From a virus: a stretch of DNA of 35,002 nt. Positions 1,643 to 31,016 of the stretch are shown here, one piece after another; position 1 is the first letter of the stretch; each line of letters starts with the position of its first letter. A program made the position numbers and the translations under genes. Where the stretch lies: UHGV virus genome UHGV-0140552; one strand, written 5' to 3'. Under the pieces are notes generated by a model. That model saw only the letters and a list, made by a program, of their open reading frames with translations. It was not told the origin of the DNA and did not search any database.

Positions 1643-2209
1643 TCAGCGCACCTGCAGCGAACGTTCGCCAATCTCAAGGTGAGCGCCCGGCACTGGGTTT
1701 AACAGTTCTTCCGGTATCTCTCCGCCGTCAGCGGTAATCTGGGCCGCCGCTGCCTGTGCTGATTCAATCGCTTCCTTGATGGCTTTCTTGTCCGGAGTGA
1801 CTAACGTCTGAACTGTCACTAATTCATCCGGCAGTAATTCATCATTATCGATCACGACGTTTATAGCTCCCTTACGTGCGGTAAAGGTATTTTTGGCGGT
1901 TTTAACCGTATCCTGACCGGCGGCCAGTAGACACTGGAGAACATATTTCTTCAGGTTCGTGATCTTACCTTCGAATGATTTTTTGCGGGCGGCAAGGCGT
2001 TTGGCCTCTTCATCGCAGGTTTTTGCCAGGCCTTCCAGATTGCGAACGTGGACGAAAACGGCATCCAGTTTATCGCCGAGTTGTAACTCAAGACCTTCCA
2101 TTGTGTCGGCGATCATTTCAGGAGACAGACCAGCACCGTCTTCGTTTTCCAGTAGTGCCTGGAGTTTTGACATATCGGCTGCGATAGCAATTGCAGTGGT
2201 GGAAGTCAT
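1643..2209 (-). CDS. Gp157-like phage protein (188 aa), recombination-module associated
   Basis: Coiled-coil-rich acidic protein with an EEAKRLAARKK...NLKKYV segment resembling the Siphovirus Gp157 family as I recall it. Translationally coupled (TAATG overlap) to the upstream annealing-protein gene. Confidence 0.55.
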   Translation of the reverse strand: MTSTTAIAIAADMSKLQALLENEDGAGLSPEMIADTMEGLELQLGDKLDAVFVHVRNLEGLAKTCDEEAKRLAARKKSFEGKITNLKKYVLQCLLAAGQDTVKTAKNTFTARKGAINVVIDNDELLPDELVTVQTLVTPDKKAIKEAIESAQAAAAQITADGGEIPEELLNPVPGAHLEIGERSLQVR

Positions 2210-4401
2210 TATGCTTTCTCCTCGGCTTTATTCAGTTCTTTAATGCGCCCATCTTTGATGGAGATGAGTCGGCGGAGCCGGCCAGACAGATAACGTTCAT
2301 GCTGCGTGTCGCCGTTGGCCTGGGCGGCTTTAATGTGAACATCGATCTCACGTGCGATAGGGGAAAACACACCGTTGATTTCGTTCACCGTCACGCCATG
2401 CGCCAGGGTATTAGCAACGCGGCTTAATTTATCGTCAAACTCCTGGCGGAGCCGTGCTGCATCTTCGGCTGATTCGCTGGCGTTCTTCAGGTCAAACTCG
2501 GCCTTGTTCTTCTGGCGGTACTCCAGATTGTCGTAAAGCCCCATAAAGATATCGCCACTGAATCCGAGGCCGGATAACGCTTTTTTGGTCGCATCTGTCA
2601 GTGATTTTTTGGCTGCTTCGCCGTCGCAGGTGATCCCGTATTTACTACCGTAAATGTAGGGTGTACAGCCGTATGCTGTTTCCTCACCTCGTACTCCGTT
2701 CAGGATGTACCAGAGCCGGACAGTCACAACATGGTGCTGTTCGTTGACGGTATTACCATTCCCATCAAGAACCAGCTCCCACGATGCGTTGTTGTCTTTG
2801 CCTTTTACTTGCCGAGTGATCGGCGCGCCAATATCGAAACGCTCTTCAACAATATCCACGCCCCAGCCGATGCCCTTAGGGCCAAACTCACGTGTGGCAA
2901 GCATGGTCATGTAGGTACCGTTGATCGAGGTGCCACCGCCGTTCTGTGTGAAAGCCTTAGTAAACCTTTCGTCGGTTTTAAATACGCGTTTCCAGAGGTC
3001 TAAATTGTCTTCCCCGATGATTGGTTTTCCGACAGCCTGCACAACATCCTCAGCGTTAGGCAGGCTTTCAGCGTGAGCGATTTGTTTTGCTAAACGCTCG
3101 GAATCATCAGCCAGTTTTTCAGCCTTAACGCTTAACTTCTCTTCCGGCTCTGCACCTTCACCAGAGGCATATACGCCATAACCCATATCATTGAGCGTCT
3201 CACGCGCCTGTTTGGCCTGGGTGTCGGTTACAACCGGCTGCTGCGCTTCCACTTTTTCGCCCACGTTTGAGGCGGTATTTTGCGTCGCCTCTGGTTGTTT
3301 AACGGATCCTGTCTCGGTTTCCTCAAAGCGGCCGTTGGCCGCCAGCCATGAATCGATATGGCGGCGCAGGCTGTCAGGGAAATGGTAGGTATCTTTCGCC
3401 GGTACGTTTTGTACCACGCCGAAGATGCTGGCGCGGTCGTATTTGAGTATCTGCGGCGTGGTGTGCAGCGATGCTGACCAGCGTTTAAAATCTTCCCGGT
3501 CATCGGAAATCATCTTCTTAGCGTCCAGAAGGTTTCCGGATAGTACCGGCGCATCAGGCGCCAGCGGGAGAAGGGCGGTAGCGATCTCCTGATCCAGCGT
3601 TGCATAAGTGTGTTTATATCCGCGCTTAGAAATTACCACGGGTGTTTTATCATCGGTGCTGGTGCTGGTGCTGGTGCTGGTGCTGGTGCTGGTGCTGGTG
3701 CTGGTGCTGAGAGCGGTATTTTTATATACGCCGGGGGCCAGTTCGTCGCGCTTGCCCGGATTCTCAAGCCAGCGTTTAACGAACTGAGAGATAGCCGCTT
3801 TGCCCGGCGTCTGGTTTTCAAAGTGGGAGAAAATACCCTGAATAAGATTGTTCAGACCTTCCACATGCATGCTTTGAACCGGGAAGTTATTTTGCAGGGC
3901 ACACAGAACATTAAAGTTAAAGCGATCTTCCTCTTCAAATTCCCCATCGTGGTTTTTCAGATTATCCAGATAATCCACAACCTGAGAATAAAGATGGCCA
4001 TCAATCGCCGCGGTACTAAAAAGCAGGACGGCAGCAAAGCGTTCATCAGGGGAAACGGTCATCAGGTCGATCACTTCATCGTCGGCAGGTAAACCTGCAC
4101 CACTTCCGGAAGCGCTATCCTGCGCAGTAGAAACCCATTTTTCACCGTCAAAAGTATGCTGCTGGGCGAATGACTCATCGAACTGGCCAACGGTCGGCAG
4201 CGGCTGGCCTTCAACGTGTTCCCACAGTTTCGGTTTGAAATAGTTGTCACCATTGGCCGGGTATGATTCCCAGAGTTTGCCGGTCATAATGCTTTCGGCC
4301 ACTTTTTTGTTTGGCGCATCGATGGCGATCGCCAGCTGCACGGCGCCGCAGTCTTTAATCGCCGATTTCTTTGGCTCAAATGAGCCGTTGTAGATGGTCA
4401 T
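2209..4401 (-). CDS. Large multidomain protein (730 aa) with C-terminal Rad52/Sak-type single-strand annealing domain and an internal (Ser-Thr)9 linker
   Basis: Segment GCTPYIYGSKYGITCDGEAAKKSLTDATKKALSGLGFSGDIFMGLYDN matches the Rad52-family signature (K-x-A/S-V/L-TD-x-x-K-K/R-AL-x-x-F/L-G). Start placed at ATG 4399-4401, which has the GAGGAAAGACCA RBS motif; the ORF-track start at 4434 is a GTG without a Shine-Dalgarno. Confidence 0.75.
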   Translation of the reverse strand: MTIYNGSFEPKKSAIKDCGAVQLAIAIDAPNKKVAESIMTGKLWESYPANGDNYFKPKLWEHVEGQPLPTVGQFDESFAQQHTFDGEKWVSTAQDSASGSGAGLPADDEVIDLMTVSPDERFAAVLLFSTAAIDGHLYSQVVDYLDNLKNHDGEFEEEDRFNFNVLCALQNNFPVQSMHVEGLNNLIQGIFSHFENQTPGKAAISQFVKRWLENPGKRDELAPGVYKNTALSTSTSTSTSTSTSTSTSTDDKTPVVISKRGYKHTYATLDQEIATALLPLAPDAPVLSGNLLDAKKMISDDREDFKRWSASLHTTPQILKYDRASIFGVVQNVPAKDTYHFPDSLRRHIDSWLAANGRFEETETGSVKQPEATQNTASNVGEKVEAQQPVVTDTQAKQARETLNDMGYGVYASGEGAEPEEKLSVKAEKLADDSERLAKQIAHAESLPNAEDVVQAVGKPIIGEDNLDLWKRVFKTDERFTKAFTQNGGGTSINGTYMTMLATREFGPKGIGWGVDIVEERFDIGAPITRQVKGKDNNASWELVLDGNGNTVNEQHHVVTVRLWYILNGVRGEETAYGCTPYIYGSKYGITCDGEAAKKSLTDATKKALSGLGFSGDIFMGLYDNLEYRQKNKAEFDLKNASESAEDAARLRQEFDDKLSRVANTLAHGVTVNEINGVFSPIAREIDVHIKAAQANGDTQHERYLSGRLRRLISIKDGRIKELNKAEEKA
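3655..3708. repeat. Perfect hexanucleotide tandem repeat (GGTGCT)x9, in-frame within the 730-aa gene, encoding (ST)9
   Basis: Read directly: nine contiguous GGTGCT units on the plus strand; on the minus coding strand AGCACC gives S-T repeats. Confidence 0.95.
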
Positions 4402-4445
4402 TGGTCTTTCCTCTTGGTTACTGGCGCAGGTCACGCGCCGGTTAA

Positions 4446-12578: not shown

Positions 12579-13175
12579 ATGGCGCAGTATTCTTTTGTAA
12601 AAGCACCCGGCGGTGTATTAATTCCGGCAACGCCTGACGCCCGCGAATTCTTAGAAAAAAAAGTCCGCATGGGCGGTATTCTGTATGCGGATTTTAAACA
12701 GGCAAGGAACCCGGCATTTCACCGTAAATTTTTTGCCCTCCTGAATCTGGGATTTGATTACTGGCAACCTTCCGGCGGTGCAATATCGCCAGCCGATAAA
12801 AAACTGGTTCGTGGTTACGTGCAGCTGGTGGCCCACTATGCCGGGCATGCCGACACATTGCAGGAACTGGCGGATCAGTATCTGCGCGATGAGGCAGAAA
12901 AACGCGCCGGGAATATCAGCGCGGTTAAATCGTTTGAAGCTTTCCGTTCCTGGGTAACTATCGAAGCCGGTTTTTATACCGAATACCAGATGCCTGATGG
13001 CACCACCCGCAAGGAACCCAAATCCATATCGTTCGCAAAAATGGACGATGTAGAATTTTCCCAGCTGTACAAATCCGTATTAGACGTCCTCTGGAATTTT
13101 ATTTTATTCCGCACCTTCCCTAATCAGCAGGCAGCAGAAAACGCAGCCTCTCAGCTTTTCAGTTATGCGGCCTGA
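12579..13175 (+). CDS. Conserved nin-region phage protein (198 aa), possibly DUF1367-like
   Basis: Good Shine-Dalgarno (AAAGGGGA) and coding-like composition. The family name is a tentative recollection. Confidence 0.6.
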   Translation: MAQYSFVKAPGGVLIPATPDAREFLEKKVRMGGILYADFKQARNPAFHRKFFALLNLGFDYWQPSGGAISPADKKLVRGYVQLVAHYAGHADTLQELADQYLRDEAEKRAGNISAVKSFEAFRSWVTIEAGFYTEYQMPDGTTRKEPKSISFAKMDDVEFSQLYKSVLDVLWNFILFRTFPNQQAAENAASQLFSYAA

Positions 13176-13185
13176 GGCGGACACT

Positions 13186-13662
13186 ATGAAATTCAATATT
13201 CGCTCTCATATCGTCGAGATGGATGAGGCCGACGCCTTGATCTTTGTGGGTTACCCCATCCACATCGGCTCGAATGGTTATGCAAAAGTCACCGGCTGGC
13301 ATTTTGGCAAGGAAAGATACCTTCATCGCGTCATCATGAATGCGGGGCCTCATGATGTTGTAGATCACATTGATGGTAATAAGCTCAACTGCACCCGCTC
13401 AAATCTGAGGATCTGCACACAGGCCGACAATACCAAAAATGTGGGCTTGAGGAGTGACAATAGCTCAGGAATTCCGGGAATTTACTGGGTATCCACTCGC
13501 CTAAAATGGGCGGCGCAAATTTCAGTTGATGGCAGGACCGTTAGTTTAGGCCGCTTTGATGAAATTGCCGATGCTATCAATGCCCGCCGGAAAGCAGAAG
13601 ATTTGTATTACGGGGAGTTTGCAGCCAGCAAGGGGGTGCTTTGTGAAAAAGCGCGCCAGTAA
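13186..13662 (+). CDS. HNH homing-type endonuclease with AP2-like DNA-binding domain (about 158 aa)
   Basis: HNH motif VDHIDGNKLNCTRSNLRICTQADNTKN, followed by an AP2-like segment GIPGIYW...WAAQISVDGRTVSLGRFDEIADA. An alternative ATG at 13165 is in frame. Confidence 0.85.
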   Translation: MKFNIRSHIVEMDEADALIFVGYPIHIGSNGYAKVTGWHFGKERYLHRVIMNAGPHDVVDHIDGNKLNCTRSNLRICTQADNTKNVGLRSDNSSGIPGIYWVSTRLKWAAQISVDGRTVSLGRFDEIADAINARRKAEDLYYGEFAASKGVLCEKARQ

Positions 13663-13957
13663 ATCAGATAAGCAATATTTCCAAGATCTCGTTGAGATAG
13701 GTTGTATTGTCTGCAAAGTACACTTCGGCGTGTACTCCGCCCCCGAAATCCATCACATCCGAACCGGTCAGGGCATAGCCCAGCGCGCCGACCACAAAGA
13801 AACTCTCCCGCTTTGCCCTCCACACCACAGAACCGGCGGACACGGCGTAGCTATCCACGCAGGGCAAAAAACGTGGGAAGAAAACTATGGAACGGAGACT
13901 GAATTGCTCGAACAGGTCACTAACGAGGTAAAGGAATTACGCTTATGCAGAATTTAA
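13643..13957 (+). CDS. DUF1364/YbcO-like Cys/His-motif protein (putative nuclease), GTG start
   Basis: Pattern C-x2-C ... HHIRTG ... C-P-x-HH resembles the YbcO family of lambdoid nin regions. AAGGGGG Shine-Dalgarno precedes GTG 13643. Confidence 0.5.
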   Translation: MKKRASKSDKQYFQDLVEIGCIVCKVHFGVYSAPEIHHIRTGQGIAQRADHKETLPLCPPHHRTGGHGVAIHAGQKTWEENYGTETELLEQVTNEVKELRLCRI

Positions 13958-15113: not shown

Positions 15114-16739
15114 ATGGATCAACTCGCCAGCCGGTTAATCAGGCGCGCTGACACGCTGAAAGCAAATCGCCAGGTGCACGAAAGCGTCTGGCGGGAATGC
15201 TACGACTACACCTATCCGCTGCGCGGGGCCGGGTTTTCGTCTGAGGTGCTGGACGCACAGAGCGCAAAGCACAAGGTTGCGAAGCTGCTGGACGGCACAG
15301 CCACCGACAGCGCCCGTATGCTGGCGTCCGCGCTTATGTCAGGGATGACCCCGGCGAATGCTCAATGGCTGAACCTCGACAGCGAATTACTTCCTGATGA
15401 CGCTAAGGCGTGGTTGTCCACCTGTGCAACGCTGGTATGGGAAAATATCCACGCCGCTAACTTTGACGCGGAAGGGTACGAGGCCAATCTCGATGTGGTC
15501 TGTGCTGGCTGGTTCGCGCTGTACGTCGATGAGGACAAGGAAGAGGGCGGATTTACCTTCCAGCAGTGGCCGCTGGCGCAATGCTTTGTGACCTCCACAC
15601 GTCGCGACGGCATCGTTGATACGATATATCGCTGCTATCAGCTCACCGCTGAACAGGCAGTGAAAGAATTCGGCGCGGACAAGGTAAGCGAAAAAATCCG
15701 CGTCGCTGCAAAAAACAAACCCGACGATAAATTTGATTTTCTGCACTGTATTTTCCCGCGCGATACCTACGTCGTAAATGCGAAGCTGGCGCGCAATATG
15801 CGTTTTGCATCGTTCAACGTGGAAGTGAGCGGCAAGCGTATCGTGCGTGAATCCGGCTATCACGAATTCCCTGTATGCGTCCCGCGCTGGATGAAAATCC
15901 CCGGTGGCTCCTACGGTATAGGCCCGGTATACGACGCGCTGCCGGACTGCAAAGAACTGAACGAAACCAAACGCATGGAGAAGGCCGCGCAGGATCTGGC
16001 TATCTCCGGCATGTGGATTGCTGAAGATGACGGCGTACTCAACCCGCGTACGGTCAAAGTCGGCCCGCGCCGCATCATCGTGGCGAACAGTACCGAAAGC
16101 ATGAAACCGTTGCTCACCGGCGCAGATTTCAACGTGGCGTTTACCGCTGAAGAACGCCTGCAGGCTTCCATCCGCAAAATCATGATGGCCGACCAGCTGC
16201 AACCGCAGGACGGCCCGGCGATGACCGCTACCGAAGTGCATGTGCGTGTCGCGCTGATCCGCCAGTTGCTTGGCCCGGTCTATGGACGATTCCAGGCTGA
16301 ATACCTGCAACCGCTGGTGGAGCGCTGCTTCGGTATTGCGTTCCGCGCTGGCGTTTTTCCTCCCGCTCCCGAGAGCCTCCAGAGCGCCAATTTCAACGTG
16401 CGTTATATCTCCCCGCTGGCCCGTGCGCAGAAGCTGGAAGATGTGACCGCCATCGAGCGATACGGCCAGAACATCATGCAGCTGGCGCGGGCGTACCCGG
16501 ATGTACTGGACAACATGGACAGCGACGAGGCGAGCAAGGTTGTCGGCGAGGCTCTTGGCGTTCCGGCAAAAGTTATGCGTTCCGCTGATGCGGTCGAGCA
16601 ACTTCGACAGCAGCGCCAGCAGATGCAACAGCAGCAGGCGCAACAGCAGTTGCTGATGCAGGCCGGGACGGAAGCCGCCGGCGCAGCAGGGCAGGCAGCA
16701 GGCGCAATTATGGGACAACGACTGGCGGGCAACCAATGA
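15114..16739 (+). CDS. Portal (head-to-tail connector) protein, T7 gp8-like (541 aa)
   Basis: Length, N-terminal pattern and Gln-rich C-terminal tail (QQRQQMQQQQAQQQLLMQ) typical of podovirus connector proteins. Followed by scaffold and capsid genes. Confidence 0.8.
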   Translation: MDQLASRLIRRADTLKANRQVHESVWRECYDYTYPLRGAGFSSEVLDAQSAKHKVAKLLDGTATDSARMLASALMSGMTPANAQWLNLDSELLPDDAKAWLSTCATLVWENIHAANFDAEGYEANLDVVCAGWFALYVDEDKEEGGFTFQQWPLAQCFVTSTRRDGIVDTIYRCYQLTAEQAVKEFGADKVSEKIRVAAKNKPDDKFDFLHCIFPRDTYVVNAKLARNMRFASFNVEVSGKRIVRESGYHEFPVCVPRWMKIPGGSYGIGPVYDALPDCKELNETKRMEKAAQDLAISGMWIAEDDGVLNPRTVKVGPRRIIVANSTESMKPLLTGADFNVAFTAEERLQASIRKIMMADQLQPQDGPAMTATEVHVRVALIRQLLGPVYGRFQAEYLQPLVERCFGIAFRAGVFPPAPESLQSANFNVRYISPLARAQKLEDVTAIERYGQNIMQLARAYPDVLDNMDSDEASKVVGEALGVPAKVMRSADAVEQLRQQRQQMQQQQAQQQLLMQAGTEAAGAAGQAAGAIMGQRLAGNQ

Positions 16740-16969
16740 TCAAAAAAGACGTAACCCCTGAAGACTACCGGCGCATTTTCGAGGAGATGCCCGGCGGGCC
16801 GCAGGTGCTGGACGAATTAACGCGCCGCTTCGGGCGTGAGGTGTATGTCAAAGGCGGTACCGAAGGCGACCGCGAAACCTGTTACCGGGCCGGACAGCGT
16901 TCCGTGCTCGATTTCATTCTGATGCAAATCAACAAAGCAGACGGAGTAAACGACGATGTGGAAGTTTAA
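16736..16969 (+). CDS. Hypothetical small protein (77 aa) between the portal and scaffold genes
   Basis: ORF overlapping the portal stop (ATGA). Confidence 0.5.
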   Translation: MIKKDVTPEDYRRIFEEMPGGPQVLDELTRRFGREVYVKGGTEGDRETCYRAGQRSVLDFILMQINKADGVNDDVEV

Positions 16970-17804
16970 ACACTTATTCATGAACACCGAAACAGGTGCA
17001 GAAGCGCCAGCGGGTAACGCAGGAGGGGATGATGCTGGTAATGGCGATGGTACTCAAAATCCGGGCGGCGGTACTCCTGCTGGTACTTCGCTACTCAGCA
17101 CCGGCGCGGGCGAACAAGGCGCGGATGACTGGCTACCTGAAAAATACCGCGTTATGGGCGATGACGGAAAACTCAACGTTGAAGGCTCAGCCCGCAAACT
17201 GGCGGATGCTTACTCGCACCTTGAAAAGCGCATGGGCAGCGGGGACATGCCGCCGAAAACTGCTGATGAGTATGCGCCAAAGGTAGAAGTCGAGGGCTTT
17301 AAGTGGGACGAATTCAAAGCCGATCCGCGCATGCAATCATTCATGAAATCGGCTCATGCCAAAGGCATCACCAACGATCAGATGGGTTTCATCCTGGGCG
17401 AATATGCACAGCTGGCCCCAGAGCTGGTTAACGGTGCTGCGGCGCTGGATTCGGAAGCCGCCGCCACGCAACTGCGCGAGACGTGGAAAACTGACGCCGA
17501 GTTTAATAAAAACATCGGCCTGGCTTTCCGTGCATTTAATACCCTGGCGGATGACGGCGACAAAGGGCGCATGGACGAAATCGGCAATAACCCGATGGTG
17601 ATCCGCATGTTGGCGAAAATCGGTGCTGAAATGCAGGAGGATGCACCGGCGGGCGGCGATGTGAATCTCGAAGAGCAGCAATCAATCCGCGACCTGATGA
17701 AGTCTCCGGCCTACATGGATCCTAAACACGCCGACCATGAGAATGTTTCCGCCCGGGTTCGCGCCTATTACCAAAAGCGTTACGGCGATCAAACCGTAGC
17801 GTGA
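16956..17804 (+). CDS. Capsid assembly (scaffolding) protein, T7 gp9-like (282 aa)
   Basis: Acidic, Gly/Ala-rich N-terminus and a T7 gp9-like C-terminal tail, positioned between portal and capsid. Confidence 0.65.
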   Translation: MWKFKHLFMNTETGAEAPAGNAGGDDAGNGDGTQNPGGGTPAGTSLLSTGAGEQGADDWLPEKYRVMGDDGKLNVEGSARKLADAYSHLEKRMGSGDMPPKTADEYAPKVEVEGFKWDEFKADPRMQSFMKSAHAKGITNDQMGFILGEYAQLAPELVNGAAALDSEAAATQLRETWKTDAEFNKNIGLAFRAFNTLADDGDKGRMDEIGNNPMVIRMLAKIGAEMQEDAPAGGDVNLEEQQSIRDLMKSPAYMDPKHADHENVSARVRAYYQKRYGDQTVA

Positions 17805-17835
17805 CATGTCACGACTACGGTCTGGGCCACTGGTC

Positions 17836-18135
17836 TTATTGCTTATTAAGCCAATCGAGGCCAGTGGCTGTTATAAAGGTTTGTCTGGTATCGATAAGCC
17901 AACGACCTTCACCGCGTTTAGGGTTGTCTATCTGCGCTCCATCCTCATCAATATATAAGTATTGAACCTGTGAGGATATCAGTCCTTTTTGATACATATA
18001 GAGAATGTGGCCATCAAGTTTATCTTCGCCATACGTCCTTAATAATTTGGTATATCCATCAGTCATTAATGGGTGCGGATAAAACTCTTGCAAATATTTT
18101 AATATATCGAAACAAACATTTTCTTCAATTTTCAT
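17836..18135 (-). CDS. Moron: hypothetical protein (99 aa) on the opposite strand between scaffold and capsid genes
   Basis: AT-rich island. TAAGGAAT Shine-Dalgarno upstream of ATG 18135. Orientation opposes the virion operon. Confidence 0.55.
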   Translation of the reverse strand: MKIEENVCFDILKYLQEFYPHPLMTDGYTKLLRTYGEDKLDGHILYMYQKGLISSQVQYLYIDEDGAQIDNPKRGEGRWLIDTRQTFITATGLDWLNKQ

Positions 18136-18202
18136 CAATTCATTCCTTAGTTGCTTAGAGCAACACCAGTATGGCACTAGTTTTTGTGCAGATATAGGTA
18201 TT

Positions 18203-18218
18203 TGGTCGGGATTCCGAC
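18203..18218. repeat. Hairpin motif GGTCGG-GATT-CCGACC (copy 1 of 4), upstream of the capsid gene; followed by ATCACTCCA at 18235-18243
   Basis: Identical 20-mer TTGGTCGGGATTCCGACCGC recurs at 30919-30938. Confidence 0.8.
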
Positions 18219-18369
18219 CGCGCACCTCGCTAACAATCACTCCATAACCAGCCCGGCGGGGACGCCGGATACCTGATTTCTCCCGCAATGCGCCAGCGCC
18301 AACCGCATTGTGCAGATTTGGGCCGGGAAACCGACACCCCGCAGGCGATTTTTTACTGGAGTGATTTTT

Positions 18370-19275
18370 ATGTCATTTGATACAAACAAGAACATGATCA
18401 CCGCTGCGTTTGTTACGCAGTTTCATGATTCTTTCGAAATTGCTGCACAGCAAAAGGATTCGCGCCTGCAAGCGGCTGTCCATGACCGTGGCAGCATCAC
18501 CGGTGCGTCGTTCACCATCAACGATATGGGCACCATTGAGATGACCCAGATCACCACGCGCTTCGGTGATACTGTCTGGGATGTTCCGGAAGCTGGTACC
18601 CGTAATGCGCTGATGGCCGACTACGGCGTTTTCGTCCCGGTCGAGAAACGCGACCTGCGCAAGCTGATTGCCGACCCGCAGGGGCCGTATTTGCAGCTCA
18701 CCCTGTCCGCCGCCAACCGCAAAAAAGACGATGTTATTTACCGCGCGCTGCTCGATGCGGTACTGCGTAAGACTGAGAACAACGGCGCGTATGCATCCGT
18801 TACCCTCCCGGCCTCGCAGAAAATCGTTGCTGGTGGTACCGGCATGACCAAAGCCAAACTGATCGCAGCAAAAGCGATGTTCCGCCGTAACGAGTGTGAC
18901 GAGCAGAACGGCGAAGAGCTGTACATGACGTACAACGCCGACATGCTGACGCAGATCCTCAGCGATACCACGCTGACCAGCGCCGACTTTATGGCGGTGA
19001 AAATGCTTCAGGAAGGTGCGGTAAACGGTAACTGGCTGGGCTTTAAATGGCTGGCTTACGAGAAACTGGACTCTGTGACCGCCGAAAGCGTCACCACCAA
19101 AACCGCCGCCGCCTGGTGTAAGTCCGCTGTGCATTTCGGTACCGGCGCTGAGTACAACGTCGATATCGGCCCGCGTCGCGATAAAAATAACACCATCCAG
19201 ATTTCCGTTGATGCGTCCTATGGCGCTGGCCGCGCCAACGAGAAAAAAGTCGTTGCCATCGATTTTGTAGCATAA
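18370..19275 (+). CDS. Major capsid protein (301 aa)
   Basis: Position after the scaffold gene, size, and GGAG Shine-Dalgarno. Assigned by synteny; similarity to T7 gp10 was not obvious by eye. Confidence 0.6.
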   Translation: MSFDTNKNMITAAFVTQFHDSFEIAAQQKDSRLQAAVHDRGSITGASFTINDMGTIEMTQITTRFGDTVWDVPEAGTRNALMADYGVFVPVEKRDLRKLIADPQGPYLQLTLSAANRKKDDVIYRALLDAVLRKTENNGAYASVTLPASQKIVAGGTGMTKAKLIAAKAMFRRNECDEQNGEELYMTYNADMLTQILSDTTLTSADFMAVKMLQEGAVNGNWLGFKWLAYEKLDSVTAESVTTKTAAAWCKSAVHFGTGAEYNVDIGPRRDKNNTIQISVDASYGAGRANEKKVVAIDFVA

Positions 19276-19334
19276 AGCCGCTGGTACCTTTGCCGGGGGA
19301 TCCCTCCCGGCCTTTTTTCATCTGAGGTAAGGCT

Positions 19335-19898
19335 ATGGCTTCCAGTATCTCTATCTGTTCTAACGCACTGCTGGCGCTCGGCGCTCATCCCATTAACAGC
19401 TTCGACGAAGCGACCGAACACGCCCGCCTGTGCTCCAATATTTACCCTACCGTACGCAATGACCTGCTGCGAAAACATCCATGGAACTGCGCGGTAAAAC
19501 GCGTCGTGCTCTCACCGTCCAGCACCGCGCCCGCGTTTGGTTTCGGCTACCAGTTCCCGCTGCCGGGCGATTTAATCCGGATCCTGTCCGTTGGCCGTGA
19601 GTATGAGGATATCGGGTACCGCGTTGAAGGAAACCGCCTGCTGGCGAATCAGAACGTAATTTATCTGCGCTACCTGTTTCGTAACGAGGATGAATCGACG
19701 TGGGATTCGTCGCTGGTCAATCTGGCCGAAGCGTTCATGGCCGCAAAGCTGGCGTACGCCGTCACCGGCTCCGCGAGTCTGCGCGACAGTCTGACGCAGG
19801 AAGCTGCATTCCTTCTTCGCCAGGCCAAATCTATCGACGGACAGGAAGAACCGCCGGAAACGCTGGACGGCTATCCAACTTATGAATCGAGGTTCTGA
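19335..19898 (+). CDS. Tail tubular protein A, gp11-like (187 aa)
   Basis: Size and position after the capsid gene, as in T7-like podovirus gene order. Confidence 0.55.
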   Translation: MASSISICSNALLALGAHPINSFDEATEHARLCSNIYPTVRNDLLRKHPWNCAVKRVVLSPSSTAPAFGFGYQFPLPGDLIRILSVGREYEDIGYRVEGNRLLANQNVIYLRYLFRNEDESTWDSSLVNLAEAFMAAKLAYAVTGSASLRDSLTQEAAFLLRQAKSIDGQEEPPETLDGYPTYESRF

Positions 19899-21889
19899 TG
19901 CGCGCGAACCTGATAAAAACCAATTTTACCGCGGGTGAAATTTCCCCGCGCCTGATGGGGCGTGTTGATATCGCCCGCTATGCCAACGGTGCAAAAATTA
20001 TCGAAAACGCGGTGTGCGTGGTGCAGGGCGGTGTCGTTCGCCGACCGGGTACGCGCTTTGCCGCTGCCGCTAAATATGGTGACCGGACAGCACGACTGAT
20101 CCCCTACGTCTTTAACCGCTCGCAGGCGTACATGCTCGAATTTGGCGACGGGTATCTGCGCATCTACCAGAACGGCCGGCAGCTGGTAAACGACGATAAT
20201 ACCCCGTATGAAATCGCCAGCCCGTACACCGTCGATATGTTGTCTGAGGTGAATTACGTGCAGGGCGCTGACACGATGTTTTTAGTGCACCAGAGCGTCC
20301 CGCCGCACCGCTTGCAGCGTAAGGGGCAAACTGATTGGGTACTGGAAGCCGCGCCGTTTATCGTGGAACCATTCGACGAAATCCGCGACACGCCGGAGAA
20401 ATGGTGTAAGCCATCGGTTAAAGAATTCGTCGGCTCAGAAATCACGCTGACGCTCAGTGATGCCGAACCCGCAGATGATGACGATTCCCCCGCGTTTACT
20501 GGTACCGGCTGGGTATCGGAGGACGTTGGTTCGTACGTTCGTATTAACAGCGGTCTGGTGCTAATTAAGAGCATCACCAGCGCGCAGATTGCTGTCGGCA
20601 CCATCCGCACCGATTTAAGCGCAACGCAGGCGGCATCCCCCGGAGCCTGGACACGTGAAGATACTGTCTGGACGGAGGAATTTGGCTACCCCGGCGCGGT
20701 GACGCTGTACCAGCAGCGGCTGGTTCTGGCTGGTTCCCCGCAGTACCCGCAAACAATCTGGTGGAGCGAAACCGGCGTTTACCTGTCGTTTGAGCTGGGA
20801 ACGGACGACGACGACGCGATCAGCTTTACGCTGTCTTCTGACCAGTTAAACCCGATCGTGCATCTGGCGCAGATGAATACGCTTATCGCGCTGACGTACG
20901 GCGGCGAGTTTACAATCACTGCCGGCAGCGACGCGGCGATCACCCCGACCAATATTTCGGTAAAAAATCCCAGCCCGTACGGCTGCAACAGCATTCGCCC
21001 GGTTCGTGTCGGTACCGAAATTATGTTTATCCAGCGTGCCGGGAAAAAACTGTATGCCGTGGCGTATGACCCCGACAGCTACGTTTCGTATTCCGCCAAT
21101 GATTTAACGGTGCTGGCCGAACACATCACGGCCGGCTGCGTCCTCGATATGGCGTATCAGCAACAGCCTGATGCGTTCGTGTGGCTGATCCGCGCCGATG
21201 GCGTACTGGTGACGATGGGTATCGACCGGGCGCAGGATGTAGTCGCATGGTCACGCCAGATCACCGATGGCGTTTTTGAATCGGTGGCGAGTATTCCCTC
21301 GGAAAGCGACGACGTGATTTATGTTCTGGTGCGCCGGGAAGTTAACGGCCAGACCGTTCGTTATGTTGAAGTATTCGACAGCAACCTGAATACCGATTCC
21401 GCAGTAACCGGCTCCAGTTCAGAAGGTGCCACCACGTGGACAGGTCTTTCTCACCTCAATGGAAAAACGGTTGATGTGGTGGCCGATGGTTCCGTGATGC
21501 CGCAGGCAACGGTAACAGACGGGCAAATCACTCTCAGCCGCAAAGCGAAAAAAATCGAAGTAGGCCTGCATTACGAAACCACCATCCAGACGCTGACGCC
21601 GGAAATCTCAACGACAGAAGGCACCACGCAGAACGCCCGCAAGCGTACCAGCGAAGTCACGCTCCGCTTTATGGAAACCACTGGCGCGGAGTGCAACGGT
21701 CAGGTGATCCCCTTCCGTACCTTCGGCCCAAAAATCCTTAACCAGCCCGCGCCACTTTTCACCGGTGATCATTATTTCGGGAAACTTGGCTGGGAGCGCG
21801 GGGAAGACACTTTGATTATTCAGCAACGCCAGCCGCTGCCGTTTCATCTGCTGGCGATTATTTTCACGTTCTCCAGCAACGGGGGCTAA
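19898..21889 (+). CDS. Tail tubular protein B, gp12-like (663 aa)
   Basis: Large protein translationally coupled to the gp11-like gene. Assigned by synteny. Confidence 0.6.
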   Translation: MRANLIKTNFTAGEISPRLMGRVDIARYANGAKIIENAVCVVQGGVVRRPGTRFAAAAKYGDRTARLIPYVFNRSQAYMLEFGDGYLRIYQNGRQLVNDDNTPYEIASPYTVDMLSEVNYVQGADTMFLVHQSVPPHRLQRKGQTDWVLEAAPFIVEPFDEIRDTPEKWCKPSVKEFVGSEITLTLSDAEPADDDDSPAFTGTGWVSEDVGSYVRINSGLVLIKSITSAQIAVGTIRTDLSATQAASPGAWTREDTVWTEEFGYPGAVTLYQQRLVLAGSPQYPQTIWWSETGVYLSFELGTDDDDAISFTLSSDQLNPIVHLAQMNTLIALTYGGEFTITAGSDAAITPTNISVKNPSPYGCNSIRPVRVGTEIMFIQRAGKKLYAVAYDPDSYVSYSANDLTVLAEHITAGCVLDMAYQQQPDAFVWLIRADGVLVTMGIDRAQDVVAWSRQITDGVFESVASIPSESDDVIYVLVRREVNGQTVRYVEVFDSNLNTDSAVTGSSSEGATTWTGLSHLNGKTVDVVADGSVMPQATVTDGQITLSRKAKKIEVGLHYETTIQTLTPEISTTEGTTQNARKRTSEVTLRFMETTGAECNGQVIPFRTFGPKILNQPAPLFTGDHYFGKLGWERGEDTLIIQQRQPLPFHLLAIIFTFSSNGG

Positions 21890-22341
21890 TGATGATCCGT
21901 AATGCAACCGCCGGTGATATTCCGGCGCTTATCGAACTGGGAACCCGGATGTACCTGGAATCCCGCTATTCCGAAAACTCACCCTTTGACGCGGACAAAT
22001 GCGCGGAACTGGCTGAGAGCCTGATTTATTCCCCCGCCGGATGCGTGCTGGTGGCAGAGAAAAACGGCCTGGTGATTGGCTGGCTCGGCGGCGGCATCGC
22101 GGAGCAGTTTTTTTCCCGCCAGTTGATGGCGTTTGAATATGGCCTGTTCGTCGCTCCGGAGTACCGGGGCGGCAGCGCGGGCCCACGGCTGGCCCGTGCA
22201 TTTATCGAATGGTCGAAAGAACACGGCGCCGCAGTGATCAACATGGGGATCACCACGGGCGTCCATGCCGAACGTACTGGCCAGCTTTATTCCCGCCTCG
22301 GTCTGCAACGTACCGGGCTGCTTTATTCGATGGAGGTTTAA
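21889..22341 (+). CDS. GNAT-family N-acetyltransferase (150 aa) embedded in the virion gene block
   Basis: Acetyl-CoA-binding-type motif FVAPEYRGGSAGPRLARAF. TAATG overlap with the tail tube B gene. Confidence 0.75.
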   Translation: MMIRNATAGDIPALIELGTRMYLESRYSENSPFDADKCAELAESLIYSPAGCVLVAEKNGLVIGWLGGGIAEQFFSRQLMAFEYGLFVAPEYRGGSAGPRLARAFIEWSKEHGAAVINMGITTGVHAERTGQLYSRLGLQRTGLLYSMEV

Positions 22342-22343
22342 CG

Positions 22344-22832
22344 ATGTGTACAGGTGTTGAAATCGCACTGGTGGCTTCTTCGGTTCTCGCTGCTGGCGGG
22401 GCAGTGGCCAGCGGCCAGCAGCAAAAGAAAATGGCGAACTATCAGGCCGCGCAGGCTGAAGCCGACGCCGAAGCATCAAAAGCAGCGGCAAAAGTTGAAG
22501 CGGAGCGTATTCGTAAAGCCGGTCGCCAGCAGGCATCTGCCGCCAATGCTGCGTTGGCAGCTTCAGGCGTTGAGACGGGAGAGGGAACGGCGCTCCGTGT
22601 CACGTCAGGTATTGTAGGGGATGCGGAGCAGGACGCCTATCAGACAATCCTTAATGGCGTGAATTCTTCTAATCGCCTGCAGGCGCAGGCACAAGCCGAC
22701 AGGATCAGCGGCAGTAATGCGGCGACAGCGGGGAATATTAGTGCTGGCAGTTCATTACTTAGTGCTGGCGGAACTGCATACAGCGGCTGGAAAAAAGCAA
22801 AAACAGGCAAATACGGTTTATATGCGGAGTAA
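22344..22832 (+). CDS. Internal virion protein (162 aa), Ala-rich, N-terminal hydrophobic segment
   Basis: Position and composition. TGGAGG Shine-Dalgarno. Confidence 0.5.
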   Translation: MCTGVEIALVASSVLAAGGAVASGQQQKKMANYQAAQAEADAEASKAAAKVEAERIRKAGRQQASAANAALAASGVETGEGTALRVTSGIVGDAEQDAYQTILNGVNSSNRLQAQAQADRISGSNAATAGNISAGSSLLSAGGTAYSGWKKAKTGKYGLYAE

Positions 22833-22837
22833 GTGAC

Positions 22838-25552
22838 GTGAGAATTCCAACGGGTAATTTTGGTAATGTGACACCGCAGGCACAGCAGACGCGTGTCGCT
22901 GTTAGCAATGTAGGCACTATAGGCAATGCGGTGTCTGGTTTTGGGACCGCTACAGGGCAGGTAGCAGAACAAGTACAGCATGAGCAGGATAAAGCCGATG
23001 TGGCAGCCACGCAGGCGATTCTGACTGATCTGGAAGCTAAATCTAATGACCGCTGGGAAAACCCGGAGACGGGCGCCACGGTCACTCGTCAGGGCTTTAA
23101 ATCGTCCGGTGTGGTAACCGATATGGATAAGGCCGACGCTGGCGATTACGAGGAAGCGCGGAAGCGCGTACCGCCCAACCAGTTAAACTATTTTGATGCG
23201 CAGTGGAAAGCAGGGCAGGTACGCCGGACAAGTACCTACAGCGGTTTCGAGCGTGCACAGACGGATGAGGCCCAGCGGCAGCAGCTTAATGCGACGGTGA
23301 CCACTTCCGTCGAACAAGAGGCCAGCGCATACGATAATCCGATGCAGGCAGGGCTGATACGTAGCGCCCGTAAACACTCGATCGAGATGTATGGCCAGGC
23401 GCGTGGCTGGCCGCAGGAGCGCATCGACGCGGCGGTATCAGAAGCGAACCAAAAAGCGCTGGAGCAGCGCGCGCAGAACTACGCGGTAACCAATCCCACT
23501 GGCTGGCTGAATGGCGATTTTACGTTGATTAACAGCAGCACCGGCGAACTCGATATGCGCGCCGTTGGCCTGGTGGAGTCCGGTGGTAAGCACCGCAATG
23601 CGGATGGTAGTCTTGTTACATCGCCCGCTGGCGCGCAGGGTGAATTTCAGTTGATGCCGGACACAGGGAAAGAACTGGCGGCTAAACGTGGCGTGGAATA
23701 CAACCCGGACGATCCTGTGCAGCATGCGCAGCTGGCGCGTGATTATGCCGGGCAGCTCAGTAAAAAATACCAGTCAGAACCACTGGCCGGGGCCGCGTAT
23801 AACTGGGGGATGGGTAACGTCGATAAACTGATCGCCAAAGTGGGCGACCCGCGCAAAGGCGAAATCTCGATGGCGGATTTCGTTAAGCAGCTGCCCGCAG
23901 AAACGCGCGGTTGGTTGTCCCGTTACAACAAAAATAAAACCGGTCTCGACCCGGTAGCAGTAAACAAAATCGACAATATCGCCGAAGCGCAGATCCGGCA
24001 GCAGCGTACGGCGCTGCGCCAGCAGATTGACCCGATTCTCAATAATACAATGGCGCAGCTGTATAACGGCGAGGTGCCGGATGCTATGCCGAACGCCTCC
24101 ACCATTTTGTTTGCGTATGGTGAGCAGGGGCAAACAGCGGTCAAGCAGCTGGATATCGCGATTGATAACGCCAGAACCTTCCAGGCTATTCAGTACGCCA
24201 CCCCGGCAGAACAGCAGGCCGAACTGGCGAAGGTGAAGCCGCAGGCAAACGATCCCGATTTTGCGCTAAAACTTGATGCACACGGCAAACTTAGCGCGCT
24301 GGTGCAGAAGAGCAACGCCAATATTCAGGCGCAGCGCGACTCCGCCCGCTTTAACGATGCGCTGCTCTCCGGCGAGAAACTCGACCCGAGCAATAAATCT
24401 ATGCAGAGGGCGGCGGACAATACGCCATCGGCGCTTAACTTCCGCATTAACGACGCCACCACTCACGACGCCATCGTGCAGCAGGTTAACCAGACCGGCA
24501 TTATCCCATCGCAAGTTACATCGCAACTGAATGCGATCGCCCGTTCCAGCAGCCCCGGCGTGGTTAAGCAGGGCTCGACATTATTTAACGCGCTGTACGA
24601 AACAGATCCTGCCTCTGTGGGCGATATGCCAAAGGACATGCAAAGCTTTTACCTGACCGTTAAACAACTTACCGATTCCGGCATGGCGTCAGACGAAGCA
24701 GTGAAGCAGGCGCAGAACGTTACCTATAACCAGACTGATGCCCTTAAATCACAATTGTCTTCTACGCAGAGCACGAAGGAATACAAAAAAGAGCGTGCCA
24801 GCGCGATGGATTCCGCAGTCAGTAGCATGAAACCGTGGTACAGCTTTGGCGGTCCTGCAGCAGATGACCAGAATCTTAACGCCGTCAATTTCCGTAACGA
24901 CTACCAGTCGCTTTATGACATCAATTATCGCAACTCGGGTGGTAATGCCGATGTTGCCAAAAAGATGACCAATACCCAGATCGCGCGTACCTGGAGTCTT
25001 AGCGATGTGAACGGCAGCGCCCAGTTTATGAAATACGCGCCTGAAGCACTTTATAACTACGGGCCTTCTGGTTGGCAGGCTGCGCAGTGGAAAGAAGAGA
25101 AAGAGCGTCTGACCTATGGCGAACGTGGAGAAAAATTTGAAACCAGCCCGACCCAACTGGGTATTACATCAGGTTCAGCGCCCGTTATTACATCAAATAC
25201 ACCTGAATCCCAAATCGGTGGTGAACTGGAAATTACCCCTGACGTTTTAACCACGCGTAACGGTGACTACGCCATTATGGTTCGCATGAAAGATAAAGAT
25301 GGTAACGAGAGCGTACAGCCATATTACGATAAATTCAGGCGTCCGATGCGCTGGAAACCGTCGCTGGAAGACTGGGAACCGTATAAAAAAATGCAGCAGG
25401 AGCGGGAACAGCAAGGCGAAGAGGAATTATCACGCGGGAAAGATATTCGAGGCTTTAAGGAAAAACACCGAGCGCTCGATGAGCAATATCAGCGTTTGCA
25501 CGATGACCGTATGAACCGGGTTAAAAACTACTTTTCATGGAGCAATGAATAA
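22838..25552 (+). CDS. Internal virion (ejection) protein with lytic transglycosylase (SLT) domain (904 aa), GTG start
   Basis: SLT motifs ES...GAQGEFQLMP...AYNWGMGN around residues 250-330. Large size and position in the internal-core block. Confidence 0.75.
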   Translation: MRIPTGNFGNVTPQAQQTRVAVSNVGTIGNAVSGFGTATGQVAEQVQHEQDKADVAATQAILTDLEAKSNDRWENPETGATVTRQGFKSSGVVTDMDKADAGDYEEARKRVPPNQLNYFDAQWKAGQVRRTSTYSGFERAQTDEAQRQQLNATVTTSVEQEASAYDNPMQAGLIRSARKHSIEMYGQARGWPQERIDAAVSEANQKALEQRAQNYAVTNPTGWLNGDFTLINSSTGELDMRAVGLVESGGKHRNADGSLVTSPAGAQGEFQLMPDTGKELAAKRGVEYNPDDPVQHAQLARDYAGQLSKKYQSEPLAGAAYNWGMGNVDKLIAKVGDPRKGEISMADFVKQLPAETRGWLSRYNKNKTGLDPVAVNKIDNIAEAQIRQQRTALRQQIDPILNNTMAQLYNGEVPDAMPNASTILFAYGEQGQTAVKQLDIAIDNARTFQAIQYATPAEQQAELAKVKPQANDPDFALKLDAHGKLSALVQKSNANIQAQRDSARFNDALLSGEKLDPSNKSMQRAADNTPSALNFRINDATTHDAIVQQVNQTGIIPSQVTSQLNAIARSSSPGVVKQGSTLFNALYETDPASVGDMPKDMQSFYLTVKQLTDSGMASDEAVKQAQNVTYNQTDALKSQLSSTQSTKEYKKERASAMDSAVSSMKPWYSFGGPAADDQNLNAVNFRNDYQSLYDINYRNSGGNADVAKKMTNTQIARTWSLSDVNGSAQFMKYAPEALYNYGPSGWQAAQWKEEKERLTYGERGEKFETSPTQLGITSGSAPVITSNTPESQIGGELEITPDVLTTRNGDYAIMVRMKDKDGNESVQPYYDKFRRPMRWKPSLEDWEPYKKMQQEREQQGEEELSRGKDIRGFKEKHRALDEQYQRLHDDRMNRVKNYFSWSNE

Positions 25553-28446: not shown

Positions 28447-28449
28447 CTA

Positions 28450-28968
28450 TTACGACTTACATGATTCGGGGGAAACCCCAAACCCAAACATGAGGGTTTT
28501 CCCTGAATCACTGTAGTAATTGATCATTATTTTTTTATTTTCTTTTCGGGTTTCGTAGAATAGCCGCTCTTGAGATGACACTGGGTAAAATCCATCTGGT
28601 GCACAATACAAATCCCTTAAATTTTTCAATGTTGAATTTTTAGCGTCTTCTGATGTAAATTTTATAAAATCGTCTGTGTAAACATTGGCATTGTAACTAG
28701 ATATGGTTTTACTTCCTTCCACATAGTGAGTATTAGTTTCACTAAAATCTGCGTTTTCTTTATAGGTTCGCAAGTGTAATACCGATACATGGATCTCAAT
28801 TTTTTTACCAGTGTCGATACCGTTAATGACCGTATAGTCGGTATATGGATTGGTAATCTGTATTCCTGGTCCGGATATAGGAACGATATATTTAGAGTCA
28901 TCAACTAAATCGGTTGATGCGAATGCTGCAAAGTGAAAGATTAGCAACAATGGAATTAATATCTTCAT
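28450..28968 (-). CDS. Moron: secreted/periplasmic protein with signal peptide (172 aa)
   Basis: AT-rich island, opposite strand. N-terminal signal peptide MKILIPLLLIFHFAAFA|STD. AAGGAG Shine-Dalgarno. Confidence 0.7.
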   Translation of the reverse strand: MKILIPLLLIFHFAAFASTDLVDDSKYIVPISGPGIQITNPYTDYTVINGIDTGKKIEIHVSVLHLRTYKENADFSETNTHYVEGSKTISSYNANVYTDDFIKFTSEDAKNSTLKNLRDLYCAPDGFYPVSSQERLFYETRKENKKIMINYYSDSGKTLMFGFGVSPESCKS

Positions 28969-28987
28969 TCTATTTACTCCTTGTGAT

Positions 28988-29003
28988 AGTCAGGATTCCG
29001 ACC
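28988..29003. repeat. Hairpin motif variant AGTCAG-GATT-CCGACC (copy 2 of 4), upstream of the terminase genes
   Basis: Read from sequence; shares the GATTC core and flanking arms with the other three copies. Confidence 0.7.
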
Positions 29004-29050
29004 TCAAAAAGAATACATCATAGCTCTATGGATAACCACGGGGCTTTTTT

Positions 29051-29392
29051 ATGCATTCAGATTACAAAACTCGCCTTACTGCTCTTAGCGATAAGCTCAC
29101 CGATGTAGTTCTGGAAGAAGCCGATCCGGACAACTGGCCGGGGGCAGGGAAGGAAATCACAAAGCACACTAAACAGGAACGCGGTGATCGGTACTGGCAT
29201 AAGAAGAACGCGGCCGCATCGCTGACGCTGCTGGTAAAAGTCCATTCGCTGATTGGCATGCATACGCGCGGGGGGACGCCTAAACCCGGCGAGGATCCGG
29301 ACGATGAAGCATTCCGCCTGGGGCAACAGGTATCTGCGGCTGAACGGGCAGCACAGGAAGTTATCGAACGCATACAACAGCGGAAAAAATGA
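29051..29392 (+). CDS. Putative terminase small subunit (113 aa)
   Basis: Small protein translationally coupled (ATGA) to the large terminase gene. Assigned by position. Confidence 0.45.
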   Translation: MHSDYKTRLTALSDKLTDVVLEEADPDNWPGAGKEITKHTKQERGDRYWHKKNAAASLTLLVKVHSLIGMHTRGGTPKPGEDPDDEAFRLGQQVSAAERAAQEVIERIQQRKK

Positions 29393-30999: not shown

Positions 31000-31016
31000 C
31001 CGCCGGAGTTCCTCGT

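Follow-up and report, generated by a model that had tools for sequence, protein, structure and literature searches.

A coding hexanucleotide repeat of variable number in the linker of a prophage recombinase fusion gene

The virus genome UHGV-0140552, analysed here as one stretch of 35,002 nucleotides (the window), reads GGTGCT nine times without a fault from position 3655 to position 3708, inside a gene for a putative phage annealase. Is such a tract an accident of replication with which the protein can live, or is it a device kept by selection for the sake of the protein or of the DNA? The feature belongs to a well-known kind of element, the hexanucleotide repeat of variable number; it is coding and lies in a linker predicted to be disordered, and replication slippage in a length-tolerant segment, with drift at little or no functional cost, is its best and quite probable explanation.

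The repeat and its alleles

In the raw sequence the array is perfect, and Tandem Repeats Finder places it at 3655-3709 with period 6, 9.2 copies, 100% matches, 0 indels, a score of 110 and the consensus GGTGCT; in the rest of the window the program finds no tandem array of more than 2.3 copies. A perfect 54-base tract of period 6 cannot have come about by chance in 35 kb of sequence, because 48 of its positions are constrained and the expectation is about 35000 x 4^-48. Across 642 kb of fetched DNA, the perfect arrays of 4-9-nt units with at least 4 copies, besides that of the window, lie at homologous loci, at STTR6 (a Salmonella repeat considered below, which was fetched deliberately) and, as two 4-copy arrays, at unrelated loci.

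The open reading frame (ORF) that bears the repeat is on the minus strand at 2209-4434, where mechanical calling runs out to a GTG at 4434; the true start is the ATG at 4401, which gives a product of 730 amino acids (aa), because all homologues start MTIYNG. Read in this frame, the array is AGC ACC repeated nine times. The gene and the repeat are thus:

2209..4401, minus strand, stop included: gene for a 730-aa fusion of a RecE-N-like part and a Rad52-like annealase (ORF list, N-termini of homologues, full-length match to PHROG 2489, number of homologues)
3655..3708, minus strand: (AGC ACC)x9 hexanucleotide variable-number repeat, which encodes (Ser-Thr)x9, residues 232-249 of the protein (Tandem Repeats Finder, codon reading, copy number at homologous loci)

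A preliminary description of this DNA had called the tract a perfect (GGTGCT)x9 coding microsatellite that encodes Ser-Thr dipeptides, and the raw sequence, Tandem Repeats Finder, the ORF list and the codon-level reading all agree with it. Alternative-frame ORFs over the repeat (3610-4092 and 3608-3787 on the plus strand, 3633-3821 on the minus strand), with their poly-Gly-Ala, poly-Val-Leu and poly-Ala-Pro products, were considered and rejected as by-products of the repeat.

The number of units differs among related prophages. As a Klebsiella allele series we took the loci whose immediate flanks read ...AAT ACC GCT CTC before the array and GAT GAT AAA... after it. Perfect arrays of the following sizes were found, the window being listed among them:

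2 units: at least 17 loci, and the most frequent protein variant
4 units: loci L005/6, L054 and L075
5 units: loci L003/4
6 units: locus L050
7 units: loci L045 and L046
8 units: locus L041
9 units: the window
15 units: locus L043

The Klebsiella alleles differ by whole hexamers throughout, protein-level data agree, and the reading frame is intact in every allele translated, with no frameshifted allele among the loci examined (at least 40 alleles). The preliminary description had expected length polymorphism among related prophages, and had named a comparison of their copy numbers in advance as the way to look for it; the counts range from 2 to 15 whole hexamers between the same immediate flanks and are clearly not identical. 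Head-to-tail perfect units, whole-unit differences in copy number between the same flanks, and a unit that is a multiple of three with the frame kept are all found here, as in other variable-number repeats. A scan with an 18-mer from the left flank, over one genome per species, returned chance matches in unrelated taxa only.

Some arrays are imperfect, and they are informative about how the tract changes. At locus L009 (3001-5196) AGC has become GGC in five of the nine units (GGCACC x5), giving a Gly-Thr repeat, and at locus L010 (3001-5190) ACC has become TCC in three consecutive units (AGCTCC x3), giving poly-Ser; locus L011 has a degenerate 4-unit array. In the arrays of L009 and L010 a point mutation arose and the mutated unit was then amplified, which is direct evidence of slippage. 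A neighbour-joining tree built on 400+400 nt of flanking sequence bears on the direction of change. Expanded alleles are dispersed among 2-unit alleles in this tree, so expansions happened repeatedly; and the window's nearest relative, L060 (99.25% identical flanks), has 2 units, as does L036, next to which the window is also placed, so the nine-unit array of the window is a recent, derived expansion.

Prophages of the Enterobacter cloacae complex, at 65% protein identity, have an AGCACC array at the same linker position within an unrelated flanking linker. Their DNA alleles have 3, 5, 6, 8, 10, 14 and 15 units (counts that include a terminal AGCACG or AGCACA unit), and protein variants with 2, 4 and 5 units occur too. 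In Serratia proteamaculans-type prophages, at 50% identity, the same array is found at the same linker position, again with unrelated flanks, in 5 and 7 units. AGC and ACC are the commonest Ser and Thr codons in the window, and under window codon usage P(AGC|Ser) x P(ACC|Thr) is 0.116. At that value, for the same hexamer to arise independently two more times would have p ~0.0135. For this reason an ancestral seed held in common and homogenised by slippage is more likely than repeated invention of AGCACC. Alleles from Klebsiella, E. coli and "Stenotrophomonas phage" that have no repeat retain decayed-looking units in their linkers, such as GGCACC GCC AGCACT at L002 and AGCACT at L001. The allele set as a whole shows a microsatellite life cycle in a phage gene: seed, expansion, copying of mutated units, and decay. 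Its range of 2-15 units makes the repeat a ready-made, highly polymorphic typing marker for a widespread prophage family of Klebsiella, Enterobacter and Serratia, and its being both persistent and hypervariable at one site over three genus-level prophage lineages adds modest interest.

The fusion protein and its linker

The protein has 1190 homologues at E<=1e-20, and PHROG 2489, which is labelled "exonuclease", aligns to it end to end. An AlphaFold2 model made from a 58-sequence alignment has a mean predicted local distance difference test score (pLDDT) of 79 and is folded at residues 1-223, 259-359 and ~464-730, which together with the profile and fold searches divides the product as follows:

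3733..4401, minus strand: N-terminal folded domain, residues 1-223, YdfE_N-type, like the non-nuclease N-terminal part of RecE (AlphaFold2 pLDDT ~85-96; PF27430 on homologues; NCBIfam)
3628..3732, minus strand: predicted disordered inter-domain linker with the repeat, residues 224-258 (pLDDT 30-47, low conservation, high gap fraction)
3325..3627, minus strand: second folded, helical domain, residues 259-359 (AlphaFold2 helices 266-356, pLDDT ~73-93; YdfE_C on the Serratia homologue)
3013..3324, minus strand: second low-confidence variable region, partly helical, residues 360-463 (pLDDT 29-60; gap-rich alignment)
2212..3012, minus strand: Rad52-fold single-strand annealing domain by modelled fold, with long C-terminal helices, residues 464-730 (Foldseek against the PDB; AlphaFold2)

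Confidence in the model is low at the linker (pLDDT about 30 over residues 224-258) and high (about 90) in the folded domains on either side. Among 33 full-length homologues, no part of the protein is less conserved (0.07) or richer in gaps (gap fraction 0.79) than residues 226-240, and phmmer pairwise alignments with distant homologues break near residue 250-260. The linker is 23-42 aa long in close homologues and should come to 54 aa in the 15-unit allele; over all homologues it ranges from ~10 to >50 aa, with mutually unrelated sequences rich in S/T/G/N/D/A. From this range of lengths, the predicted disorder and the low conservation we conclude that the repeat sits in a length-tolerant inter-domain linker, and the preliminary description was thus right to place it in a linker, now identified as the most gap-rich and least conserved stretch of the alignment. 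A junction that tolerates linkers of ~10 to >50 residues is useful to know for construct design and for the engineering of recombineering tools. Residues 360-463, which separate the Rad52-like domain from the helical domain before it, also differ in length among homologues, and they contain no tandem repeat.

The N-terminal part resembles RecE (exodeoxyribonuclease VIII of the Rac prophage) and E. coli YdfE. The NCBIfam exodeoxyribonuclease VIII profile matches with its positions 56-381 of 877 against residues 52-376 (E 3.7e-13), at a score of 48.5 bits that is far under the family cut-off of 1269. All close homologues have a precomputed PF27430 (YdfE_N) label, and one, from Serratia, has a precomputed PF27432 (YdfE_C) label, on the strength of which residues 259-359 may be assigned to YdfE_C. 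Pfam returned 0 hits on the whole protein at E<=0.1, with a library evidently lacking the newer YdfE_N and YdfE_C models. In RecE itself the N-terminal domain is of unknown function and the nuclease lies at residues 564-866 (PMC11611040). This C-terminal PD-(D/E)XK nuclease domain is absent from the present protein, which has a Rad52-like annealase instead, and no nuclease domain was detected in the 730 residues. The protein is not a RecE exonuclease, and the PHROG label and the RefSeq names of its relatives ("exonuclease family protein" or "phage-associated endonuclease") are probably misnomers, because the RecE nuclease domain is missing and the annealase stands in its place.

For the C-terminal domain, Foldseek against the PDB returned 11 human RAD52 chains (E 1.8e-6 to 2.4e-5, probability 1.00). 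The model has a beta-beta-beta-alpha core at 513-611, with strands at 513-527, 553-567 and 570-586 followed by a helix at 596-611. Residues ~464 to 700 have counterparts in many phages as stand-alone proteins of ~240-280 aa, and some of the phage proteins matched by tblastn bear the annotation RAD52-like annealing protein. Searches of PDB sequences with the protein and with the 58-sequence profile gave insignificant matches only. The kinship with Rad52 is thus visible by fold and through similarity to phage proteins annotated as RAD52-like, and curated Rad52-family sequence models were not matched. By its modelled fold the C-terminal part is a Rad52/Sak-type annealase, with a predicted annealing activity. 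It has in common with the Rad52/Sak-type phage annealing proteins (Lopes et al. 2010, PMC2896510) the RAD52 N-terminal fold, the existence, in many phages, of the domain by itself as a protein of ~250 aa, and a place in the early-left recombination region with a Gp157-family neighbour; it differs from them in being fused behind a RecE-N-related module of ~460 residues and in having no adjacent exonuclease gene that we could see.

The protein is therefore an uncharacterised fusion of a RecE-N-like module and a Rad52-fold annealase, and the preliminary term "recombinase fusion protein" is borne out by the YdfE_N-type N-terminal part and by the RAD52 fold that Foldseek found at the other end. The literature was searched for YdfE/RecE N-terminal fusions and for the use of this gene as a repeat marker in Klebsiella, with no specific result. 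That the host protein of the repeat is uncharacterised and mislabelled as an exonuclease adds modest interest to the locus. The repeat marks a domain boundary in the fusion of the RecE N-terminal module with the Rad52-like annealase.

Slippage and its alternatives

Slipped-strand mispairing would gain or lose whole AGCACC units. The unit being six bases long, the frame is never broken, and each change would put Ser-Thr dipeptides in or take them out. The linker connects the YdfE_N-type domain at the N-terminus with the remainder of the protein and tolerates large differences in length and composition, and because of this tolerance the length of the array could drift at little or no functional cost. 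An array would start from a 2-unit proto-repeat, become more prone to slippage as it grows, and finally decay by point mutations. Slippage as the process is suggested in part by analogy, as Salmonella 6-bp repeats change by one unit in laboratory passage (PMC5183578), and repeat length appears to be near-neutral. It is reasonable to regard differences in protein length in this annealase gene as slippage noise and not as distinct genes. Two considerations weigh against this explanation. Ongoing instability in the source strain is something that we infer from sequence comparison, and the AGCACC hexamer has been kept at one site down to 50% amino-acid identity while the flanking linker has become unrelated, a persistence that could reflect selection maintaining the tract.

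The closest known elements are the STTR6 and STTR5 repeats used in multilocus variable-number tandem repeat analysis of Salmonella Typhimurium, which are likewise perfect 6-bp arrays that differ by whole units between close strains. STTR5 is reportedly a coding 6-bp repeat too, its product being repeated dipeptides within a YohM/RcnA loop. STTR6 is prophage-borne, on Gifsy-1 (PMC3901673), and gains units in laboratory passage (PMC5183578). We found it in Gifsy-1 (NC_010392.1, L081 2316-2397) as (GCAAGG)x13.7, in an unannotated gap between gogB and STM2585. The idea that STTR6 might lie within a homologous RecE-like gene of Gifsy-1 was rejected, the repeat being in the gap near gogB and the RecE-like region having no tandem repeat. 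The present repeat differs from STTR6 in that it is coding, gives Ser-Thr, lies in the linker of a recombinase and occupies the same position in three prophage lineages of genus rank. With such elements in mind, the earlier remark that nine hexamers are unusual in a phage gene holds only mildly, since prophages and genes of enterobacteria are well known to contain variable-number repeats of six-base units, STTR6 on Gifsy-1 among them (PMC3901673). Slipped-strand mispairing in a short intragenic tandem repeat is also the basis of phase-variable contingency loci such as those of Haemophilus or Neisseria, but the unit here is a multiple of three within an ORF, and the repeat is therefore no phase-variation switch: its variation is one of length, not of on and off.

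The persistence of the hexamer is also what an adaptive explanation would build upon. Selection might keep rapid, reversible changes in linker length as a tuning knob that adjusts how far the RecE-like module and the Rad52-like annealase ring can reach from one another, or their relative geometry, or the changes might aid escape from host defences that sense phage recombinases; we regard these possibilities, taken jointly, as unlikely. The AGCACC array is indeed retained and polymorphic in Klebsiella, Enterobacter and Serratia despite the unrelated linker, independent origins of the same hexamer would have the low p value given above, expansions recur on the flank tree, and several defence systems are reported to target phage homologous recombinases (PMC11846896). 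However, the commonest Klebsiella allele is the minimal one of 2 units, in many close relatives the repeat is gone entirely and a short non-repetitive linker stands in its place, and distant homologues manage with linkers of ~10 aa. No preferred length is evident, Ser to Gly and Thr to Ser variants are tolerated, and a slippage-homogenised ancestral seed would account for the persistence of the repeat without selection.

A function might instead reside in the DNA, where near-Chi units in tandem might jointly slow the degradation of phage DNA by RecBCD or promote recombination. The plus strand of the array has eight overlapping GCTGGTGC octamers, each one base off the enterobacterial Chi sequence GCTGGTGG, against 1.34 expected in the whole window. 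The window has five exact Chi octamers, all on the plus strand (12824, 16313, 18829, 22047 and 34217), where 1.15 are expected from shuffles and 1 of 100 shuffles reached 5. The near-Chi octamers are on the plus strand like the true Chi sites, though the gene there is a minus-strand one. The hexamer itself, beyond the Ser-Thr it encodes, is conserved across lineages, and chi* (GCTGGTGCTCG), a related 11-mer, has a weak stimulating effect on wild-type RecBCD and gives a larger burst size of lambda red gam (PMC5041463). The repeat is nevertheless neither Chi nor chi*. Its GCTGGTGC matches 7/8 Chi bases and 9/11 chi* bases, but neither GCTGGTGG nor GCTGGTGCTCG occurs exactly within it, and it reads GCTGGTGCTGG where chi* needs CTCG, each base of which is reported to be required, for the mutant RecBC1004D enzyme (PMC5041463). 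The modal allele holds a single such octamer, the GGC units of L009 and the TCC units of L010 break the motif, a strand shared with true Chi has a 50% prior, the plus-strand bias of true Chi probably follows from codon usage in plus-strand genes, and Ser and Thr are in any event most often encoded by AGC and ACC here. We therefore think a role of the array in the DNA very improbable.

The proposal of the preliminary description that the Ser/Thr repeats are potential sites of phosphorylation or glycosylation, and the idea that such modification regulates the recombinase, draw on composition only, namely an unbroken run of 18 hydroxyl residues in a segment that is exposed and disordered, and they found no support. 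A Pfam scan of 20 ORFs of the window gave no domain of a kinase or a glycosyltransferase, many close homologues have 2 units or none, and natural alleles swap Ser for Gly or Thr for Ser in many units. Phosphorylation and O-glycosylation are in any case uncommon for a cytoplasmic phage protein in an enterobacterium, and we hold such regulation to be even less probable than a near-Chi function. As to an error of assembly or sequencing, short tandem repeats can be mis-sized in some assemblies, and nothing more specific speaks for it here; the tract is 54 bp, below ordinary read length, many array sizes occur with the same flanks in dozens of independent assemblies (NCBI, IMG/VR, ENA, Logan), and the reading frame is preserved in all of them, which leaves an artefact practically no chance. 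Overall, that (AGCACC)n is a selectively maintained hypermutable element, be it an adjustable protein spacer, a means of defence escape or a near-Chi GCTGGTGC x n array dampening RecBCD, seems improbable. If selection did act on the tract, for tuning of the linker or for a near-Chi function, it would be of greater interest; the present evidence does not require selection.

Prophage context

The annealase gene lies in the early-left arm of an integrase-bearing prophage, where the minus strand carries int (1-1017), the Gp157 gene and then the annealase gene; the other neighbours are small ORFs of unknown function, and no exonuclease gene is adjacent. Scans of the window for Rfam families and tRNAs found nothing. 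The order of the Gp157 and annealase genes is the same in all related loci.

1643..2209, minus strand: Gp157 family (Siphovirus) gene, downstream of the annealase gene and overlapping its stop codon by one base (Pfam PF05565, E 8e-35)

Related prophages adjoin pgsA. A full-length relative was found in 1 of 5426 complete E. coli genomes (L002; NZ_CM180093.1, E. coli 23GD11002), where it lies by pgsA and a tRNA-Gly/Cys/Leu cluster; this being the site used in Klebsiella, it suggests occasional intergeneric transfer of the prophage type. Two phage records assigned to Stenotrophomonas maltophilia, L001 (OM816834.1, Stenotrophomonas phage vB_SmeS_BUCT708) and OM816835.1, have an integrase/DUF4224/Gp157/annealase/cI module that is ~80-90% nucleotide-identical to the Klebsiella-type prophage, which is unexpected for a xanthomonad host.

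The late region (15114-33536, plus strand) has a T7-like layout, housed here in an integrase-bearing, cI/Cro-controlled prophage, with a protein in the portal position (PHROG "head-tail adaptor"), a capsid protein and tail proteins. Two late-region proteins, of 904 and 964 aa, match the PHROG entries "endolysin" and "internal virion protein with endolysin domain". Other genes of the window include, upstream of and within this region:

13165-13662, plus strand: HNH endonuclease ORF, overlapping the next one
13556-13957, plus strand: RecA-dependent nuclease (Ref-like)/DUF968 ORF, a second recombination-related function in the prophage
21889-22341, plus strand: GNAT acetyltransferase, late region
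29389-30999, plus strand: T7-type terminase, late region
31017-33536, plus strand: protein with a T7 tail-fibre N-terminal domain, late region

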